A stretch of 6,743 bases of DNA from a virus (taxonomy: Duplodnaviria; Heunggongvirae; Uroviricota; Caudoviricetes): IMG/VR virus record IMGVR_UViG_3300029104_000056, positions 1-6,743 of that record. One strand, given 5' to 3'. Made by a program: the position numbers and the translations under genes. Positions 1 to 6,743 of the stretch are shown one piece after another. The notes under the pieces were generated by a model that worked only from the letters and a program-made list of their open reading frames with translations, was not told the DNA's origin and searched no databases. Within the stretch, counting starts at the first letter, position 1. Each line of letters starts with the position of its first letter.

Positions 1-104
1 CGGAACTGACGGCCGGGGCAGAAAAACGCCGTCGCCGGAAGAAAAAACTGCGGACGGAGCGTGCGGAAGATAATCCATGGACAACATCAGGAGGCTGGTT
101 GTGA
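1..104 (+). CDS. Large terminase subunit, C-terminal fragment (5' end lies outside the window)
   Basis: The frame with codons at 3-5, 6-8 and so on is open from the window edge to TGA 102-104 and uses typical enterobacterial codons (ctg, gaa, aaa, cgc, cgt). It encodes a basic tail, ...AEKRRRRKKKLRTERAEDNPWTTSGGWL*. It sits directly upstream of the W-like and portal genes, as the A gene does in lambda. Too short for confident homology. Confidence 0.4.
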   Translation, partial: ELTAGAEKRRRRKKKLRTERAEDNPWTTSGGWL

Positions 105-313
105 GCACTGAAGAAGTCAGAGAAATGATACAGCGGTACCGTGAAGCGGAAAGGGCGGTACTGGAGGGGAAGTCTGTCACCTTCAACGGGCAGCAACTGA
201 CGCTGGAAAGCCTTTCTCAGATCCGCGCCGGACGTCAGGAGTGGGAACGCAGGCTTGCCGCGATGGAGAACCGCAGACGGGGAAAACCGGGATTTAAACT
301 GGCGAGGTTTTAA
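101..313 (+). CDS. gpW-like head completion / head-tail joining protein
   Basis: The C-terminus ...AAMENRRRGKPGF resembles the lambda gpW C-terminus (...QRRRGPAGFYV as I recall it). Preferred start is GTG 101, preceded by AGGAGG at 89-94 with a 6-nt spacer and overlapping the terminase stop as GTGA; this gives about 70 aa, similar to gpW (68 aa). The ORF track's in-frame ATG at 77 is the alternative start. Stop is TAA 311-313. Confidence 0.7.
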   Translation: MSTEEVREMIQRYREAERAVLEGKSVTFNGQQLTLESLSQIRAGRQEWERRLAAMENRRRGKPGFKLARF

Positions 314-1807
314 TGGCAATTATCGATGATGTGATAGGCGTGTTTTCCCCCGGATGGAAAGCAGCCAGACTGCGTTCAAGGGCATTAATCATGGCCTATG
401 AGGCGGTGAAAACGACCCGGACACATAAAGCCCGGCGGGAAAATCGCTCTGCTGATCAGCTCAGTAAATACGGTGCGGTTTCCCTGCGGGAGCAGGCCCG
501 TTTTCTGGATATCAATCATGACCTGGTGATTGGTGTGTTTGACAAGCTTGAAGAGCGGGTGATTGGTGCCAGGGGAATTATTGTGGAGCCTCAGCCATTA
601 CGAAAAAACGGGGAAATGGCGGCAGAGCTGGCTGCGGATATCCGCCGGTTGTGGGCTGAATGGTCGGTCAGTCCGGATGTGACAGGGCAGTATACCCGTC
701 CCGTGCTTGAGCGTTTACTGCTGCGGACCTGGCTGCGGGATGGTGAAGTGTTTGCGCAGATGGTCAGTGGGGCGGGAAATGGTCTGGAACGGACGGCGGG
801 AGTGCCATTCTGGCTTGAAGCGATGGAGCCGGATTTTGTTCCCATGCGCAGTGATGAATCCGCCGGGCTGAATCAGGGGGTTTTTCTTGATGAGTGGGGA
901 AGACCGAAAAAATATCTGGTTTATAAAAATTATCCGGTCAGCGGCCGGCAGAGTGATACGAAAGAAATCGTTGCCGGAAAAATGATCCACCTGAAGTTCA
1001 CTCGTCGTCTGCATCAGACGCGAGGCTCATCCATGTTATCGGGGGTGCTGATGCGGATCAGTGCCCTTAAGGAGTATGAGGATGCGGAACTGACGGCAGC
1101 GCGTNNNNNNNNNNNNNNNNNNNNNNAAAGGGGACGGGCAGGACTATGAAGATCCTGGGATCAAAGAGACCGAGCGGGAAGTCCATATCACCCCGGGTAT
1201 TATTTATGACGATTTGCGCAAGGGCGAGGATATCGGCATGGTCAAATCTGACCGTCCTAACCCCAATCTTGAAACCTTTCGTAACGGTCAGCTGCGTGCA
1301 GTAGCTGCAGGCAGTCGTCTGAGTTTTTCCAGTGCGGCGCGTAACTATAACGGTACCTACAGTGCCCAGCGGCAGGAGCTGGTCGAGTCCACCGACGGGT
1401 ATCTGATCCTGCAGGACTGTTTTATTGGCGCGGTAACCCGCCCTGTGTACCGGACATGGCTGAATATGGTGGTTGCGGCAGGTCTGCTGAAAATTCCGGC
1501 AGATGTGGAGATGAAAACGCTATATAACGCGACGTATTCCGGTCCGGTGATGCCGTGGATCGATCCGGTTAAGGAAGCTGAAGCCTGGAGAATTCAGATC
1601 CGGGGTGGTGCAGCGACAGAATCCGACTGGGTTCGGGCCGGAGGGCGCAATCCGGATGAGGTCAAACGTCGCCGCAAGGCTGAAATTGATGAAAACAGCA
1701 GACTGGGGCTGGTCTTTGATACTGACCCCGTCAACGATAAAGGAGGAAACAGTGCCGGAACTGAACGACAGCATCAGCGCGACACCGAAAGCCAGCATGA
1801 AGAATAA
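313..1807 (+). CDS. Phage portal protein (interrupted by an N-run at 1105-1126)
   Basis: ATG 313 overlaps the W stop (TAATG) with GCGAGG at 302-307 upstream. A 278-aa ORF runs into the N-run, and coding resumes at 1127 in a different frame through to TAA 1805-1807 (...GGRNPDEVKRRRKAEIDENSRLGLVFDTDPVNDKGG...). Size (about 500 aa) and position between the W-like gene and the prohead protease fit a portal. The frame change across the Ns reflects unknown gap length, not necessarily a real frameshift. Confidence 0.8.
1105..1126. other. Run of 22 N (assembly or masking gap) inside the portal gene
   Basis: Directly visible. The coding frame differs on the two sides, so the true gap length is unknown. 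Confidence 0.95.
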
Positions 1808-3768
1808 ATCCTGGTTCAGGATGCAGGCTGGGGGGCCGGGTGACGCAGATATTTATATTTATGATGAGATTGGTTTCTGGGGCGTTACCGCGAAGCAGTT
1901 TGTCAGCGAACTGAATGCACTTGGTGATATCACCCACATTAATCTCCATATCAATTCACCGGGTGGCGATGTCTTTGAAGGCATCGCCATTTTTAATGCC
2001 CTGAAAAATCAGGGGGCGACCATTACCGTGTATGTGGATGGCGTTGCCGCCTCGATGGCATCCGTGATTGCGATGGCCGGTGATACGGTCATTATGCCGG
2101 AAAATGCCTTCATGATGATCCATAAGCCATGGGGATTCAGTGGCGGGGATGCTGAGGATATGCGCAGTTATGCCGATTTGCTGGATAAAGTCGAATCGGT
2201 ACTGTTGCCAGCCTATGCGCAGAAAACCGGAAAAACCACCGATGAAATTGCCGCCATGCTGGCGGATGAAACCTGGATGTCCGGTGCTGAATGTCTGGCA
2301 CACGGATTTGCTGACCAGGTGACACCCGCTGTTAAGGCAATGGCATGTATTCAGTCAAAACGTACAGAGGAATTTAAAAAGATGCCGGAATCCATTCGAA
2401 ATATGATTACTCCGCCACGCAACAGTGCTCCACGCGTACAGGATGATGGACCTGCAGCCTCCCGGACGCCAGTGCAGGCAGCAGCACCCGTGGTGGATGA
2501 AAACAGCATCCGTGCGCAGGTCCTGGCAGAGCAAAAAGCGCGTGTAAACGGTATTAATGATCTGTTTGCCATGTTTGGCGGGCGTTATCAGTCGTTGCAG
2601 GCTCAGTGTCTTGCCGATCCTGAATGTTCGCTGGAGCAGGCCCGCGAAAAGCTGTTGAACGAGATGGGGCGCGAGTCCACGCCATCCAATAAAAATACCC
2701 CGGCTCATATTTATGCCGGTAACGGTAATTTTGTGGGGGACGGGATCCGCCAGGCGCTGATGGCGCGCGCCGGGTTTGAAAAAACTGAACGTGATAATGT
2801 CTACAACGGGATGACCCTGCGTGAATATGCCCGTATGTCACTGACTGAACGTGGTATTGGTGTTTCCAGTTATAACCCGATGCAGATGGTCGGTGCGGCG
2901 TTCATACACAGTACGTCTGACTTCGGTAATATTCTGCTGGATGTTGCGAACAAAGCCATTCTGCAGGGCTGGGAAGATGCCCCTGAAACCTATGAACAGT
3001 GGACGCGGAAAGGTCAGTTGTCTGATTTTAAAATTGCCCATCGTGTGGGTATGGGGGGCTTCAGTGCTCTGCGTCAGGTGCGTGAAGGGGCAGAATATAA
3101 ATACGTCACCNNNNNNNNNNATGGCACTGGCGACCTATGGCGAGCTGTTCAGTATCACCCGTCAGGCCATTATCAATGATGATCTGAATATGCTGACCGA
3201 TGTCCCGATGAAGCTGGGCCGTGCGGCGAAATCCACTATTGCCGATCTGGTTTATGCCATTCTGACGTCTAACCCGAAAATCTCCACAGATAATGTAAGT
3301 CTGTTCGATAAAGCGAAACATGCAAACGTACTGGAGAGCGCGGCAATGGACGTGGCATCGCTGGATAAAGCCCGCCAGTTGATGCGCGTTCAGAAAGAGG
3401 GTGAGCGTCATCTGAATATTCGTCCTGCGTTCGTACTGGTACCGACGGCGATGGAGTCTGTTGCTAACCAGGTCATTCGCTCCTCAAGTGTCAAGGGGGC
3501 TGACATTAACGCCGGTATTATTAACCCGGTGAAAGATTTTGCGACCGTTATTGCAGAGCCTCGTCTTGATGATAACAGCCAGACCACCTTCTACCTGGCT
3601 GCGTCCAAAGGCTCCGATACGATTGAAGTGGCTTATCTCAACGGTGTGGATACGCCATATATTGATCAGATGGAGGGCTTCAGTGTGGATGGCGTGACAA
3701 CGAAAGTGCGTATTGACGCTGGTGTTGCGCCAGTTGATCACCGCGGCCTGGTGAAATGTACGGCGTAA
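1752..3768 (+). CDS. ClpP-like prohead protease fused to a linker/scaffold-like segment and a major capsid protein domain (interrupted by an N-run at 3111-3120)
   Basis: Start is GTG 1752 with AGGAGG at 1741-1746 and a 5-nt spacer, lying inside the 3' end of the portal gene. The N-terminal domain has ClpP-type motifs: VDGVAASMAS (Ser codon 2052-2054) and MMIHKPWGFSGG (His codon 2121-2123). A Pro/Ala-rich and predicted helical segment follows (about 2400-2700), then a capsid-like C-terminal region ending KCTA with TAA 3766-3768. The frame changes across the 10-N run, but coding sequence resumes immediately at 3121. Confidence 0.8.
3111..3120. other. Run of 10 N (assembly or masking gap) inside the capsid domain
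   Basis: Directly visible. The frame differs on the two sides (codons at 3108-3110 before, 3121-3123 after). Confidence 0.95.
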
Positions 3769-3791
3769 ACGTCGCAGACAACAACTCTGAT

Positions 3792-3811
3792 GGCCCGTAA
3801 GGGCTTTTTTT
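3792..3811 (+). terminator. Putative intrinsic terminator after the protease-capsid gene
   Basis: A short GC stem GCCC(GTAA)GGGC at 3793-3804 is followed by a run of seven T at 3805-3811, 25 nt after the capsid stop. Confidence 0.5.
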
Positions 3812-3822
3812 GTACCTGAAAT

Positions 3823-3841
3823 CAGCCCCTGAACGGGGCTG
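3823..3841 (+). promoter_or_regulatory. Perfect 7-bp hairpin just upstream of the next gene's ribosome-binding site
   Basis: CAGCCCC (3823-3829), loop TGAAC, GGGGCTG (3835-3841). There is no T-run after it. GGAG at 3845-3848 and ATG 3855 follow. Confidence 0.4.
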
Positions 3842-3854
3842 TGCGGAGACAGTT

Positions 3855-4178
3855 ATGGCAAAGAATTTTGTAGAAGAAGGAAAAACGGTGGCGATTGTTG
3901 CAAGTGCAGCCATCAGCAGCGGAGATCTGGTGCAGGTGGGTGATGTTTTTGCGGTGGCGCTGACCGATATTCCACAGGGAGAAACAGGCGACGGCATAAC
4001 CGAAGGTGTGTTTATGCTGCCTAAGCTGAAAACGGATGACATGAAAACGGGTAAGAAGGTTTATCTGAAGTCAGGAAAAGTTCAGCTGACTAACAGCGGC
4101 TCTGATCCGCTGGTCGGGGTTGTCTGGGCAGATGCCGGAACCAGTGCAGAAGAAGTGCCGGTAAAACTCAATGTCTGA
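3855..4178 (+). CDS. Small head-associated protein, DUF2190-like (possible decoration or cement protein)
   Basis: ATG 3855 has GGAG at 3845-3848 with a 6-nt spacer. The 107-aa product MAKNFVEEGKTV...GDGITEGVFMLPK... resembles the DUF2190 proteins found next to capsid genes. The ORF track's upstream ATG at 3810 lies inside the terminator and lacks an RBS. Stop is TGA 4176-4178. Confidence 0.55.
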   Translation: MAKNFVEEGKTVAIVASAAISSGDLVQVGDVFAVALTDIPQGETGDGITEGVFMLPKLKTDDMKTGKKVYLKSGKVQLTNSGSDPLVGVVWADAGTSAEEVPVKLNV

Positions 4179-4446
4179 TCCCTTTTCCCGGCTGGCAGCG
4201 CGTATGGATGCGATCACGGTCAGAAAGATGGGAAAGACAGCCTCGATTAATGATGTCGATATGACTGTGATCCCGGGAGAAACACTGGCAGAGCTGAATG
4301 CTCTGTCCGGACCTGCGGTCTCTCTGGTGGTGTTTTCTTCGGGATACCGCCCACGGCGCGGGGATCGCGTTGTTTATGACGGACAACAATGGACGGTCAC
4401 ACGGCATGAACGTTTTAACGGTAAGCCAATGATCTTTATTGAGTAA
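4171..4446 (+). CDS. gpFII-like head-tail joining protein
   Basis: The 91-aa product has an N-terminus (FSRLAARMDAITVRKMGKTASIN) and an RRGD...W.V.R segment (PRRGDRVVYDGQQWTVTRHE) that parallel lambda gpFII as I recall it. It overlaps the upstream gene by 8 nt. Stop is TAA 4444-4446. Confidence 0.7.
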   Translation: MSDPFSRLAARMDAITVRKMGKTASINDVDMTVIPGETLAELNALSGPAVSLVVFSSGYRPRRGDRVVYDGQQWTVTRHERFNGKPMIFIE

Positions 4447-4457
4447 TGAGGTGTGGG

Positions 4458-5036
4458 ATGAAGGGGCTTGAGAATGCCATCCGCAATCTGAACAGCCTTG
4501 ATACCCGTATGGTGCCACAGGCCAGCGCATGGGCGATAAACCGTGTGGCACAGAAAGCGGTCTCGGTTGCCACCCGGCAGGTTGCCGGGAATACCGTTGC
4601 GGGAGATAACCAGGTGAAAGGGATCCCCCTGAAACTGGTACGTCAGCGTGTCCGGGTGTTTAAAGCCAGTCCGTCAGGAAAAATGACGGCCAGGATCCGC
4701 GTTAACCGGGGCAATCTGCCCGCCATTAAGCTGGGGACAGCCCGGGTCAGACTGGCCCGGCGTGGTGGAAAACTGCAGTACCGTGGCAGTGTGCTGAAGG
4801 TGGGTAAATATCTTTTCCGGGATGCGTTTATTCAGCAACTGGCGAATGGTCGCTGGCATGTGATGCGACGTATTGATGGCAAAAATCGTTACCCCATTGA
4901 TGTGGTGAAAATCCCGCTGTCCGGACCGCTGACACAGGCATTTGAAGATGCCCGCGACCACATCATTGCTGCGGAAATGCCGAAACAGCTGGGGTATGCA
5001 CTGAAACAACAACTGAGGTTATGGCTGACCCGATGA
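4458..5036 (+). CDS. gpZ-like tail completion protein
   Basis: Strong resemblance to lambda gpZ: KGLENAIRNL, WAINRVA, IRVNRGNLPAIKLG, AFIQQLANGRWHVMRRIDGKNRYPIDVVKIP, LGYALKQQLR. Start ATG 4458 is preferred, with GAGG at 4448-4451 and a 6-nt spacer, matching the lambda MAIKGLE start. The in-frame ATG at 4446 (TAATG overlap) is the alternative. Stop is TGA 5034-5036. Confidence 0.85.
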   Translation: MKGLENAIRNLNSLDTRMVPQASAWAINRVAQKAVSVATRQVAGNTVAGDNQVKGIPLKLVRQRVRVFKASPSGKMTARIRVNRGNLPAIKLGTARVRLARRGGKLQYRGSVLKVGKYLFRDAFIQQLANGRWHVMRRIDGKNRYPIDVVKIPLSGPLTQAFEDARDHIIAAEMPKQLGYALKQQLRLWLTR

Positions 5037-5434
5037 ACCGACATACACAAATCCGCCAGGTCGTACTGGCACGCCTTCGGGAACAGTGTGGAGACAGCGC
5101 CACGTTTTTTGACGGGCTTCCGGCATTTGTTGATGCGCAGGAACTGCCTGCCGTGGCGGTGTGGCTGAGTGATGCTCAGTACACCGGAAAAATGACGGAT
5201 GAAGATGACTGGCAGGCTGTTCTGCATATTGCTGTCTTCATCCGGGCACAGGCACCGGATTCAGAGCTGGATATGTGGATGGAGAGCACCATTTTCCCGG
5301 CCCTGAATGATGTACCAGCACTTTCCGGACTCATCGACACCCTGATCCCACTCGGTTTTAACTATCAACGTGATAATGAGATGGCCACCTGGGCGATGGC
5401 GGAAATCACGTACCAGATCACGTACACGAATTAA
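5033..5434 (+). CDS. gpU-like tail terminator protein
   Basis: Strong resemblance to lambda gpU: ATFFDG, ELPAVAVWL, DWQA.LHI.VF..AQ.PDSELD.WMES, ITYQITY. ATG 5033 overlaps the Z stop (ATGA) and aligns best with the lambda N-terminus. The in-frame ATG at 5021 given by the ORF track is the alternative. Stop is TAA 5432-5434. Confidence 0.85.
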   Translation: MNRHTQIRQVVLARLREQCGDSATFFDGLPAFVDAQELPAVAVWLSDAQYTGKMTDEDDWQAVLHIAVFIRAQAPDSELDMWMESTIFPALNDVPALSGLIDTLIPLGFNYQRDNEMATWAMAEITYQITYTN

Positions 5435-5444
5435 GGAGGTGGTA

Positions 5445-6188
5445 ATGACCACACCAAATCCACTGGCAAAAACGAAAGGTGCGGGAACGACGTTCTGGAT
5501 GTATACCGGCAAGGGCGATGCGTTTGTGAACCCTTTATCGGACACTGACTGGCTGCGTCTTGCGATGGTGAAGGATCTGCAACCTGGCGAAATGACCGCT
5601 GATGCAGAAGATGACACTTATCTCGATGATGAAGATGCAGACTGGAAAACGACAACCCAGGGGCAGAAATCAGTCGGTGATACTTCGGCGACGCTGGCCT
5701 GGCGTCCGGGGGACAGCGGGCAGAAAAAACTGGTTCAGTTGTTCGACTCCGGTGAAGTCTGCGCGTTTCGTATCAAATATCCCAACGGTACTGTTGATGT
5801 TTTCCGTGGCTGGCTGAGTTCACTGGGTAAAACCATTGCTTCAAAAGACGTGATGACCCGCACAGTGAAAATCAGCGGTGTGGGGCGTCCGTATCTGGCA
5901 GAGGAAGGCACTGAAACCGTGGGCGTTACCGGGCTGACGGTGGCACCGGCATCTGCCAGTGTAAAAGTGGGAGCAACCACCACGCTGACCTTTACAGTAA
6001 AACCTGACGGAGCCAGTGACAAAGCGATCAGTGTGCATTCGACAGATCCACAGACTGCCACGGTGACCCTGAACGGGCTTGTGGCCACGGTGAAAGGCGT
6101 GAAGCAGGGCAGTGTCAGCATTGTGGGCATGACTTCTGACGGCGATTTTGTGGCAGTGGCTACGGTGGCTGTCAGCGCCGCAGGTTAA
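5445..6188 (+). CDS. gpV-like major tail protein with a C-terminal Ig-like domain
   Basis: AAGGAGGTGG at 5433-5442 precedes ATG 5445. The product is close to lambda gpV: KGAGTT.W.Y.G.GD...NPLSD.DW.RLA.VKDL.PGE.TA, the acidic YLDDEDADW block, PNGTVDVFRGW.SS.GK, TRTVK..GVGRP. The C-terminal part (about 5925-6185) is rich in T/V/S/A with alternating beta-like pattern, as in the gpV Ig-like domain. Stop is TAA 6186-6188. Confidence 0.9.
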   Translation: MTTPNPLAKTKGAGTTFWMYTGKGDAFVNPLSDTDWLRLAMVKDLQPGEMTADAEDDTYLDDEDADWKTTTQGQKSVGDTSATLAWRPGDSGQKKLVQLFDSGEVCAFRIKYPNGTVDVFRGWLSSLGKTIASKDVMTRTVKISGVGRPYLAEEGTETVGVTGLTVAPASASVKVGATTTLTFTVKPDGASDKAISVHSTDPQTATVTLNGLVATVKGVKQGSVSIVGMTSDGDFVAVATVAVSAAG

Positions 6189-6208
6189 CAGGACGATACT
6201 CATCATTT

Positions 6209-6232
6209 GCCCCGGTTATCCGGGGCTTTTTT
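6209..6232 (+). terminator. Intrinsic terminator after the major tail gene
   Basis: Perfect 7-bp GC-rich stem GCCCCGG (6209-6215), loop TTAT, CCGGGGC (6220-6226), followed by TTTTTT at 6227-6232. Confidence 0.7.
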
Positions 6233-6248
6233 GCAGGTGGAGAACATG

Positions 6249-6635
6249 ATGTTTCTGAAACAGGGCACGTTTAATTATGAAAAGCAGTCCGTGGTGCTCA
6301 GTGAGCTGTCCGGGCTGCAGAGAATTGAATATCTGGCGTTTGTTCAGCAGCGAACGGCAAAGTTTGATGCCGAAGAGGGAGAACTGCCGGAGGCTGAACG
6401 ACAGATTGCTTTTCTGCGGATGGGGATGGATATCAATGCCTGGCTGGTTTCCCGCTCACTGTGGAATGCGGAACAGTCTCAGGATGTTGAGACGCTTTGC
6501 GCATCCGTTATTACAACATGGTCGTATGATGCCCTGGGAACGGGGGCGGAGATGGTTCTGTCGCTGAGCGGTATGGGAGCCATTGAGAATGCCGGGGATT
6601 TGGAGCATGAGGTGCTGACGCCGGAAAAGTCCTGA
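6249..6635 (+). CDS. gpG-like tail assembly chaperone
   Basis: The N-terminus MFLK...VVLSELSGLQRIEYLAF parallels lambda gpG (MFLK...TLSELSALQRIEHLAL), and LSLSGM matches RLSGM. GGAG at 6239-6242 is 6 nt from ATG 6249; ATG 6246 is an in-frame alternative. Stop is TGA 6633-6635. Confidence 0.85.
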   Translation: MFLKQGTFNYEKQSVVLSELSGLQRIEYLAFVQQRTAKFDAEEGELPEAERQIAFLRMGMDINAWLVSRSLWNAEQSQDVETLCASVITTWSYDALGTGAEMVLSLSGMGAIENAGDLEHEVLTPEKS

Positions 6636-6743
6636 CGCGGGAAATGCAGTTTGTCATGCGGCTTGCCCGGGAGTTCAGGCGGGCAGACTGGCGGCGGATG
6701 CTGTCGGAAATGTCGGCCACTGAGCTTGGTGAGTGGGGCGATT
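6611..6743 (+). CDS. gpT frame: start of the tail assembly protein, likely expressed as a G-T frameshift fusion (3' end lies outside the window)
   Basis: The -1 frame reads GADAGKVLTREMQFVMRLAREFRRADWRRMLSEMSATELGEWGD and is open to the window edge. It overlaps the last 25 nt of G and sits where T sits in lambda. Confidence 0.6.
6623..6629 (+). promoter_or_regulatory. Candidate -1 frameshift slippery site for the gpG-gpT fusion
   Basis: GGAAAAG read as G GAA AAG in the G frame, placed just before the G stop as lambda's G GGA AAG is. The -1 frame is open only from 6611 (a TGA at 6608-6610 closes it upstream) and runs to the window end. Confidence 0.5.

Follow-up and report, generated by a model that had tools for sequence, protein, structure and literature searches.

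The gene at positions 1752 to 3768 of the window, by which we mean the whole 6,743-nucleotide stretch of viral DNA analyzed here, encodes a ClpP-like protease, a linker and an HK97-fold capsid domain, in that order. We are highly confident that this is the head-shell gene of a lambdoid prophage of the Gifsy-2, mEp460 and cdtI type, and that its product is a single three-part polypeptide of ~75 kDa. From this standpoint, it is an unexceptional representative of a head gene well known from lambdoid prophages, in an arrangement that has already been described. An earlier sequence-only reading of this DNA had proposed a self-processing fusion of protease, linker and capsid protein and had guessed that the arrangement was a known one. 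The domain identities and their order on one open reading frame are borne out by our analysis, and the guess was sound, since the NCBI pipeline has a model for the arrangement (NF045540) and Gifsy-2 provides a precedent.

The gene is divided in the window by a run of ten Ns. The piece upstream of this run, from the GTG at 1752 to position 3110, comprises 453 stop-free codons and contains the CLP_protease domain, a linker that is first Pro/Ala-rich and then helical, and the first ~75 residues of the Phage_capsid_4 domain. The downstream piece, which starts at 3121 and ends with the TAA at 3766-3768, is likewise stop-free and contains the remainder of Phage_capsid_4. Because the open reading frame to the left of 3111 by itself carries the protease and linker and runs on into the capsid domain, the existence of the fusion is independent of the N run. 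With the 21 nt found in relatives in place of the Ns, the gene has ~675 codons. The N-terminal piece scores 624.2 bits against the NCBIfam model NF045540 over profile positions 2-430, and so exceeds the cutoff of 475 by itself, whilst the C-terminal piece scores 336.6 bits over the adjoining positions 439-651; the two pieces are thus collinear. The homologue from Escherichia coli S88 scores 983.9 bits against the same model. The score against NF045542 (NCBIfam) also lies above its cutoff, and RefSeq names the homologues 'ClpP-like prohead protease/major capsid protein fusion protein'. The features of the gene and its surroundings are collected in Table 1.

Table 1. Coordinates in the window of the fusion gene, its parts and its neighbors.
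Feature	Position	Strand	Residues or basis
Lambda-type portal gene	313..1807	+	PHROG 21 and 537 'portal protein'; Pfam Phage_portal_2 on homologues
Shine-Dalgarno-like AGGAGG	1741..1746	+	Read in the sequence; 5 nt ahead of GTG 1752
ClpP-like prohead protease / scaffold-like linker / major capsid protein fusion gene	1752..3768	+	NF045540; assigned to PHROG 133; RefSeq homologues
ClpP-related head maturation protease domain	1845..2321	+	Residues 32-190
Putative catalytic Ser101 codon (GVAASMAS)	2052..2054	+	Aligns with GMAASMG of S. pneumoniae ClpP 1y7o
Putative catalytic His124 codon (MIHKP)	2121..2123	+	Aligns with MIHQP of ClpP
Asp172-Glu173	2265..2270	+	Alignment to 1y7o: 'laDEtwms' vs 'aeRDnwms'
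Linker / presumed scaffolding region	2325..2876	+	Residues ~192-375
Pro/Ala-rich disordered stretch within linker	2421-2486	+	Residues 224-245; helices follow
Major capsid protein domain, HK97 fold (Phage_capsid_4 / Mu gpT-like)	2877..3765	+	Split by N run
10-N run within capsid domain	3111..3120	.	Equals 21 nt (TGDKQAT) in relatives
Head decoration / cement protein gene, 107 aa	3855..4178	+	PHROG 122 'head decoration', E 5.5e-47

The start of the S88 homologue in RefSeq is the GTG equivalent to that at 1752. This codon is nevertheless a candidate start only, because the E. coli UTAK-6 homologue is annotated from an ATG equivalent to window position 1797.

The N-terminal part of the polypeptide has a ClpP fold and retains the putative catalytic Ser and His residues. 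Pfam CLP_protease is matched over residues 46-191 (E 7.5e-37), and sequence searches of the PDB with the full-length protein or its profile returned ClpP only. The Ser and His codons picked out in the sequence-only reading lie where it placed them, both in the frame of 1752, and His124 is invariant in all 97 of the diverse relatives compared. We rejected a canonical Ser-His-Asp triad. When aligned to 1y7o, the protein has Glu173 where ClpP has its catalytic Asp, and this column varies across the family (of 97 relatives, 45 have E, 30 have L and 5 have D). Since the Asp position is both altered here and variable, the putative protease chemistry is that of a Ser-His dyad or of a non-canonical triad.

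Pfam, NCBIfam and PHROG assign no separate domain to the linker. Its structural character is indicated by an AlphaFold2 (AF2) model of P0004, a protein 93% identical to the window protein (mean pLDDT 89.1; the Gifsy-2 protein was not part of the input alignment), in which two well-folded domains are accompanied by disordered linkers. Confidence falls below a pLDDT of 50 at residues 224-245 and 317-324, and the linker helices are predicted at residues 250-273, 280-288, 294-307, 327-339 and 356-365. The first of these low-confidence stretches coincides with the Pro/Ala-rich segment remarked on earlier. By analogy with Gifsy-2 and with the delta domain of HK97, the linker most likely acts as an internal scaffold.

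The C-terminal part is an HK97-fold capsid domain. Phage_capsid_4 is matched over residues 378-452 of the N-terminal piece and residues 2-212 of the C-terminal piece, so that the Pfam check suggested alongside the sequence-only reading gives CLP_protease at the N-terminus and Phage_capsid_4 at the C-terminus. Solved Mu-GpT-type capsid proteins in the PDB are also matched, and were reached only with a profile of the capsid domain alone. The domain is somewhat shorter than the ~330 residues originally claimed for it, being nearer 300 aa if counted from residue 378 of the Pfam match to the end of the ~675 aa protein. The PHROG annotation of the window contains no other capsid-like open reading frame.

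The claim that a single frame runs from 1752 to 3768 holds insofar as there is no stop in either piece, but in window coordinates the frames of the two pieces differ (1752 mod 3 = 0, 3121 mod 3 = 1), 10 not being a multiple of three. Since the 10-base gap shifts the frame, continuity cannot be read from the window and rests on relatives. In E. coli S88, the flanks of which are 100% and 99.5% identical to those of the gap over 200 nt each, the corresponding sequence is the 21 nt ACCGGAGATAAACAGGCCACT, encoding TGDKQAT. The same 21 nt are present at ten further E. coli loci (11 loci in total), and the identical seven residues stand at the gap position in Gifsy-2. From these relatives we infer that the capsid domain reads through the N run in frame. 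The run falls within the capsid fold: Phage_capsid_4 is matched ahead of it over profile positions 7-63 and beyond it over 74-261, and the flanking positions in NF045540 are 430 and 439. In the AF2 model, pLDDT is lower (71-81) at residues 431-460, which are bounded by strands 429-431 and 459-473, and the N run is probably situated in or near the E-loop.

If the ten Ns were instead true to length, they would record an 11-nt deletion, and the gene would be a frameshifted pseudogene consisting of a protease-scaffold-partial-capsid reading frame and a dead C-terminal fragment. The difference in frame across the gap would agree with this, as would the base adjoining the gap, which makes the codon ATG (Met) in the window vs ATT (Ile) in all relatives and accounts for the only difference from most relatives over the 648 nt that follow. 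Bar that one base, however, the flanks match intact genes at 99.5-100% identity. Moreover, a 22-N run in the portal gene (1105-1126) takes the place of 30 nt present in E. coli UTAK-6, a relative with 100% identity to the window over positions 1-1104, and so the N runs in the window are not true to length. The frame change at 3111-3120 therefore does not point to a frameshift or to a pair of genes. It is unlikely that two independent deletions, both out of frame, would each lie exactly beneath an N run, and we consider decay of the gene very improbable. The same codon is the one feature that speaks for two separate genes, in which the gap would conceal a stop and a start and the ATG at 3121, directly 3' of the run, would open an independent capsid gene. 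A hidden stop and start was one of the outcomes named in the sequence-only reading as refuting a fusion, and our data lend it no support: the gap lies inside the capsid fold, flanked by matched positions of both Phage_capsid_4 and NF045540, and all relatives read through it in frame. In every relative, Gifsy-2 among them, the equivalent codon is Ile (ATT) and belongs to a conserved ...TIALATYGE... strand. A 215-aa C-terminal fragment would, moreover, miss the N-terminal third of the capsid domain. We regard two genes as scarcely credible, even beside a pseudogene.

A different departure from one simple product would arise within the linker, where the in-frame ATG at 2382 (Met211) could give rise to a second, protease-less product made up of scaffold and capsid, akin to lambda Nu3 within C, such that some shell subunits would lack the protease. 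A GAGGAA lies 9 nt 5' of this ATG, and a layout of GAGGAG, 9 nt and ATG is shared by Gifsy-2 and all the close relatives checked; in addition, some depositors have named the homologue 'protease C / scaffolding domain Nu3'. Against this, GAGGA is formed by conserved Glu-Glu codons, and protein conservation therefore accounts for the layout equally well. A conserved internal start at residue 211 does not hold across the family, with Met retained in 7 of 97 diverse relatives, all of them close ones, and we leave the nested start as an idea of low probability. If true, it would represent a nested-gene solution as in lambda C/Nu3, yet within the capsid gene, and the ratio of full-length to protease-less product would set the protease copy number inside each procapsid.

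The single fusion gene that we favor occupies the expected place in a head module, after the portal gene, the end of which it overlaps by 56 nt, and before the decoration gene. Pfam PF09956 (Phage_cement_2) is matched on a protein identical to the 107-aa decoration product. The order of portal gene, fusion gene, 107-aa decoration gene and connector genes is common to Gifsy-2 and to all ten of ten E. coli loci.

The closest characterized counterpart is the tripartite capsid gene of Gifsy-2 (STM1034.3n.Gifsy2, 696 aa), which encodes a ClpP-like protease, a middle region and a capsid protein in the same order. It is 57.8% identical to the window protein over 100% of the N-terminal piece, and its sequence spanning the window's gap, YKYVTTGDKQATIALATYGE, is identical. 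Its neighbors are also the same, with a portal gene 5' and, 3', a 107-aa decoration-type gene, a connector gene and homologues of gpZ, gpU and gpV. The Gifsy-2 protein is ~20 residues longer, with a diverged N-terminus and Pro/Gln-rich linker, and its host is Salmonella whereas that of the window prophage is Escherichia. Processing and capsid structure have been studied in Gifsy-2. Effantin et al. 2010 (Virology 402:355) is reportedly an experimental study of the Gifsy-2 'tripartite capsid gene'. Other papers cite it for the fusion of protease and coat genes (PMC12315714), for a decoration protein that sits as a trimer on the 3-fold axes (PMC8538268) and for T=7 (PMC8814770). Much closer in sequence are the copies in the E. 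coli lambdoid phages mEp460, cdtI, phi458, Ayreon and Tritos (93-94% identity over the N-terminal piece) and in E. coli prophages, where the C-terminal piece is ~99.8% identical at the DNA level.

The contrast drawn in the sequence-only reading with lambda and HK97 stands up, in that the window has one open reading frame with a ClpP-type and not an S78 protease. The HK97 fold of gp5 is common to the window capsid domain, as judged by the fold match. In HK97 the N-terminal assembly region of the capsid protein is removed by a phage protease after procapsid assembly. This protease, gp4, is the product of a separate S78-family gene, and gp5 has no fused part other than the delta (scaffold) domain; the HK97 shell is stabilized by covalent cross-links, whereas the window module has a decoration gene instead. 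Pfam and NCBIfam gave no Peptidase_S78 (PF04586) match in the window protein, and the module is not of the kind with a separate S78 protease gene. Fusions of an HK97-type (Peptidase_S78) protease and a capsid protein do exist and are modeled by NF045541, in which the scaffold-plus-capsid portion is homologous and matches residues 219-453 and the C-terminal piece. The window protein nevertheless falls below the cutoff (137 and 238 bits vs 525), and the protease family differs. Peptidase_S78 is found at the N-terminus in 13 of 72 diverse relatives of the capsid domain. The likeness to lambda is that of a lambdoid siphovirus head module, and lies in the lambda-type portal, the decoration protein and tail genes resembling lambda Z, U, V, G and T. 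In lambda, scaffold Nu3 is fused to protease C or nested within it, and capsid protein E is encoded by a separate gene after D; the window has no such separate capsid gene, but rather combines the three functions in one reading frame with the decoration gene 3' of it.

By analogy with Gifsy-2 and from general knowledge of HK97 and lambda, a likely pathway of head assembly can be proposed for the window prophage. The polypeptide would comprise an N-terminal ClpP-like serine protease of ~21 kDa, a middle part of ~20 kDa and an HK97-fold capsid part of ~32 kDa. Full-length subunits would assemble on the portal encoded upstream to form a T=7 procapsid in which the protease and scaffold parts face inward. 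The protease domains would then cut off both themselves and the linker, with the fragments leaving the shell, which would expand during DNA packaging. The cement/decoration product of the next gene would bind the exterior of the shell and stabilize it.

The gene is widely conserved. Matches are present in 2121 of 5426 complete E. coli genomes (~40%), where every record among the matches listed is annotated as a fusion protein, and extend to 6063 protein clusters at E <= 1e-10. Among isolated phages, those that carry a matching gene include mEp460, cdtI, phi458, Stx2 phages, mEp213, LLS, Fels-1, Gifsy-2 and Pseudomonas F10 and MD8. The best representative-protein matches (P0123, P0124, P0001 and P0122) were not used as evidence because they are chimeric or rearranged, with joins such as terminase-capsid and portal-capsid. 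As the arrangement has a curated NCBIfam model and the Gifsy-2 precedent, the importance of the window gene is small beyond its correct annotation. In practice, the fusion gene should be annotated as one open reading frame, and the N runs of the window should not be taken as true lengths. A search of genome contigs for an exact 42-mer of the window gave no match, viral contigs gave only relatives at 82-85% identity, and no identical copy was found. The window itself is a mosaic, with the protease end of the gene resembling the UTAK-6 type and the capsid end the S88 type.

Our analysis supports the reading of window 1752-3768 as a gene in which a ClpP-like protease, a linker and a capsid protein are fused. 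This arrangement is already known and curated, as the sequence-only reading had correctly guessed, the corresponding NCBIfam model being NF045540 (ClpP-like prohead protease/major capsid protein fusion). The frame starts with GTG at 1752, 5 nt downstream of AGGAGG, and continues without a stop for 453 codons to 3110 (the N piece), where a run of 10 N begins (3111-3120). To the right of this gap, the C piece has 215 open codons from 3121 followed by TAA at 3766-3768. The Pfam search that the sequence-only reading had proposed, run on the translated pieces, placed CLP_protease at the N-terminus (residues 46-191, E 7.5e-37) and Phage_capsid_4 at the C-terminus, the latter beginning on the N piece (residues 378-452; 29 bits, cutoff 27) and continuing on the C piece (residues 2-212, E 8e-40). 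A partial Mu-like_gpT match is also present in the capsid part. Protease, linker and capsid-domain start thus all lie on the stop-free ORF left of the gap, and the fusion is therefore independent of the gap; the interpretation made from sequence alone is supported, and the observation behind it was essentially right, except in its literal statement about the frame.

The protease assignment is reinforced by NCBIfam NF045542 (head maturation protease, ClpP-related), with a score of 225.5 bits (cutoff 120). Alignment to Streptococcus pneumoniae ClpP puts Ser101 (GVAASMAS) and His124 (MIHKP) on the active-site motifs, with their codons at 2052-2054 and 2121-2123, as originally located. The ClpP Asp position is occupied by Glu173, adjoining Asp172. 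His124 is conserved in all of 97 diverse relatives; the Asp position is variable. The structure of P0004, an E. coli protein sharing 93% identity with the N piece, was modelled from an alignment with 71 diverse relatives (mean pLDDT 89.1). Helices occupy the stretch between the protease and capsid domains of the model, which is disordered at residues 1-17, 224-245 (a Pro/Ala-rich stretch) and 317-324.

The earlier claim of a single reading frame across 1752-3768 holds in that both stretches are stop-free, but the pieces are in different frames in window coordinates (1752 mod 3 = 0, 3121 mod 3 = 1), so that continuity is deduced across the gap and is not visible in the window itself. This mismatch is what a frameshifted pseudogene would produce, a reading that we consider very improbable given the relatives. 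E. coli S88, whose sequence is 100% and 99.5% identical to the gap flanks (200 nt each side), has 21 in-frame nt across the gap, ACCGGAGATAAACAGGCCACT (TGDKQAT), and the identical 21 nt occur in 10 further E. coli loci retrieved via an identical decoration protein. Even in Salmonella phage Gifsy-2, where identity over the N piece drops to about 58%, these residues are unchanged: YKYVTTGDKQATIALATYGE. Moreover, the window's other N run (1105-1126, 22 N, in the portal gene) corresponds to 30 nt in E. coli UTAK-6, and N runs of the window therefore do not keep length. The N piece covers positions 2-430 of NF045540 and the C piece 439-651, the roughly eight absent positions being consistent with seven codons. 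From these comparisons we take the fusion gene to be intact across the gap. The N-run lengths make intact portal and capsid fusion genes appear frameshifted in window coordinates. The base at 3123 is G, giving ATG (Met) at 3121 where every relative has ATT (Ile); this sole mismatch over the downstream 648 nt in most loci compared may reflect either a genuine Ile-to-Met substitution or a gap-edge error.

In lambda, Nu3 is nested within C. An analogous internal start at the in-frame ATG 2382 (Met211, KKMPES; window 2366-2384), at the protease-linker boundary, would yield a protease-less scaffold-capsid product besides the fusion. GAGGAA lies 9 nt upstream of this ATG, and the layout of a GAGGA-type motif and ATG is shared by Gifsy-2 and all close relatives. 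However, the motif is produced by conserved Glu-Glu codons and Met211 is retained in only 7 of the 97 diverse relatives, making such a product unlikely.

The fusion is widespread. Of 5426 complete E. coli genomes, 2121 match window 1700-3800, and the homologue is annotated as a fusion protein in every E. coli record listed. A protein search, scoring at most 8000 candidates, gave at least 6063 clusters with E <= 1e-10. Of the 120 listed, most have a length of about 650-690 aa and contain both Pfam domains; they derive from Escherichia, Shigella, Salmonella and Citrobacter. Among 149 listed representatives with lengths tallied, 113 have at least 560 aa and a C-terminal capsid match. Among isolated phages, identity to the N piece is 93-94% for mEp460, cdtI, phi458 and others, 82-87% for several Stx2 phages, 73% for mEp213, mEp043 and LLS, 62% for Fels-1, 58% for Gifsy-2, and about 54% for Pseudomonas phages F10 and MD8. 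In an alignment of 72 diverse full-length relatives (600-720 aa), all carry Phage_capsid_4, 48 CLP_protease and 13 Peptidase_S78. The fusion therefore occurs with two protease families, corresponding to NF045540 and NF045541, and the scaffold-capsid module has been joined to proteases of two unrelated families. Database proteins P0123, P0124, P0001 and P0122 include chimeras whose C-terminus is identical to the capsid domain (terminase-capsid, portal-protease-capsid, internal duplication and internal deletion types); presumably these are remnants of rearranged prophages or products of misassembly.

By analogy with Gifsy-2, from which we infer the assembly pathway, each shell subunit would bring a protease and a scaffold of its own into the procapsid. 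Both parts would then be cut off by the protease, after which the shell would expand and be decorated by the downstream gene's product. Later papers cite Effantin et al. (2010) on Gifsy-2 for the fusion of protease and coat genes (PMC12315714), a T=7 shell (PMC8814770) and a decoration protein that sits as trimers on the 3-fold axes (PMC8538268). With estimated boundaries, the parts would be about 21 kDa (protease), 20 kDa (linker) and 32 kDa (capsid).

The window is a head-to-tail section of a lambdoid prophage late operon, with every gene on the + strand.

Genes of the window, assigned from PHROGs, Pfam on identical or near-identical proteins, and RefSeq annotation of E. coli S88 and UTAK-6
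Feature	Window coordinates	Strand	Basis
Small head-tail adaptor-like gene	77-313	+	PHROGs / Pfam / RefSeq
Lambda-type portal gene	313-1807	+	PHROGs / Pfam / RefSeq
Protease-linker-capsid fusion	1752-3768	+	PHROGs / Pfam / RefSeq
Head decoration / cement gene, 107 aa	3855-4178	+	PHROGs / Pfam / RefSeq
Connector and tail-completion genes	4171-4446, 4446-5036	+	PHROGs / Pfam / RefSeq
gpU-like tail terminator	5021-5434	+	PHROGs / Pfam / RefSeq
Major tail protein with Ig-like domain	5445-6188	+	PHROGs / Pfam / RefSeq
gpG / gpT tail assembly chaperones	from 6246 on	+	PHROGs / Pfam / RefSeq

The window is mosaic: 1-1104 is 100% identical to UTAK-6 and the remainder only 86%, while 1183-6743 is 94.7% identical to S88, with the changeover within or close to the N run of the portal gene. 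Terminator-like GC hairpins followed by T runs lie directly 3' of the capsid fusion gene (3792-3812) and of the major tail protein gene (6209-6232), whose two products are the most abundant proteins in the virion. Inside the late operon these hairpins may act as partial terminators or stabilise the mRNA. Within 6618-6743, gpG ends ...CCG GAA AAG TCC TGA, and from just 5' of this stop the -1 frame stays open into the gpT frame (MQFVMRLAREF...), an arrangement resembling the programmed -1 frameshift of lambda-type G/GT genes.
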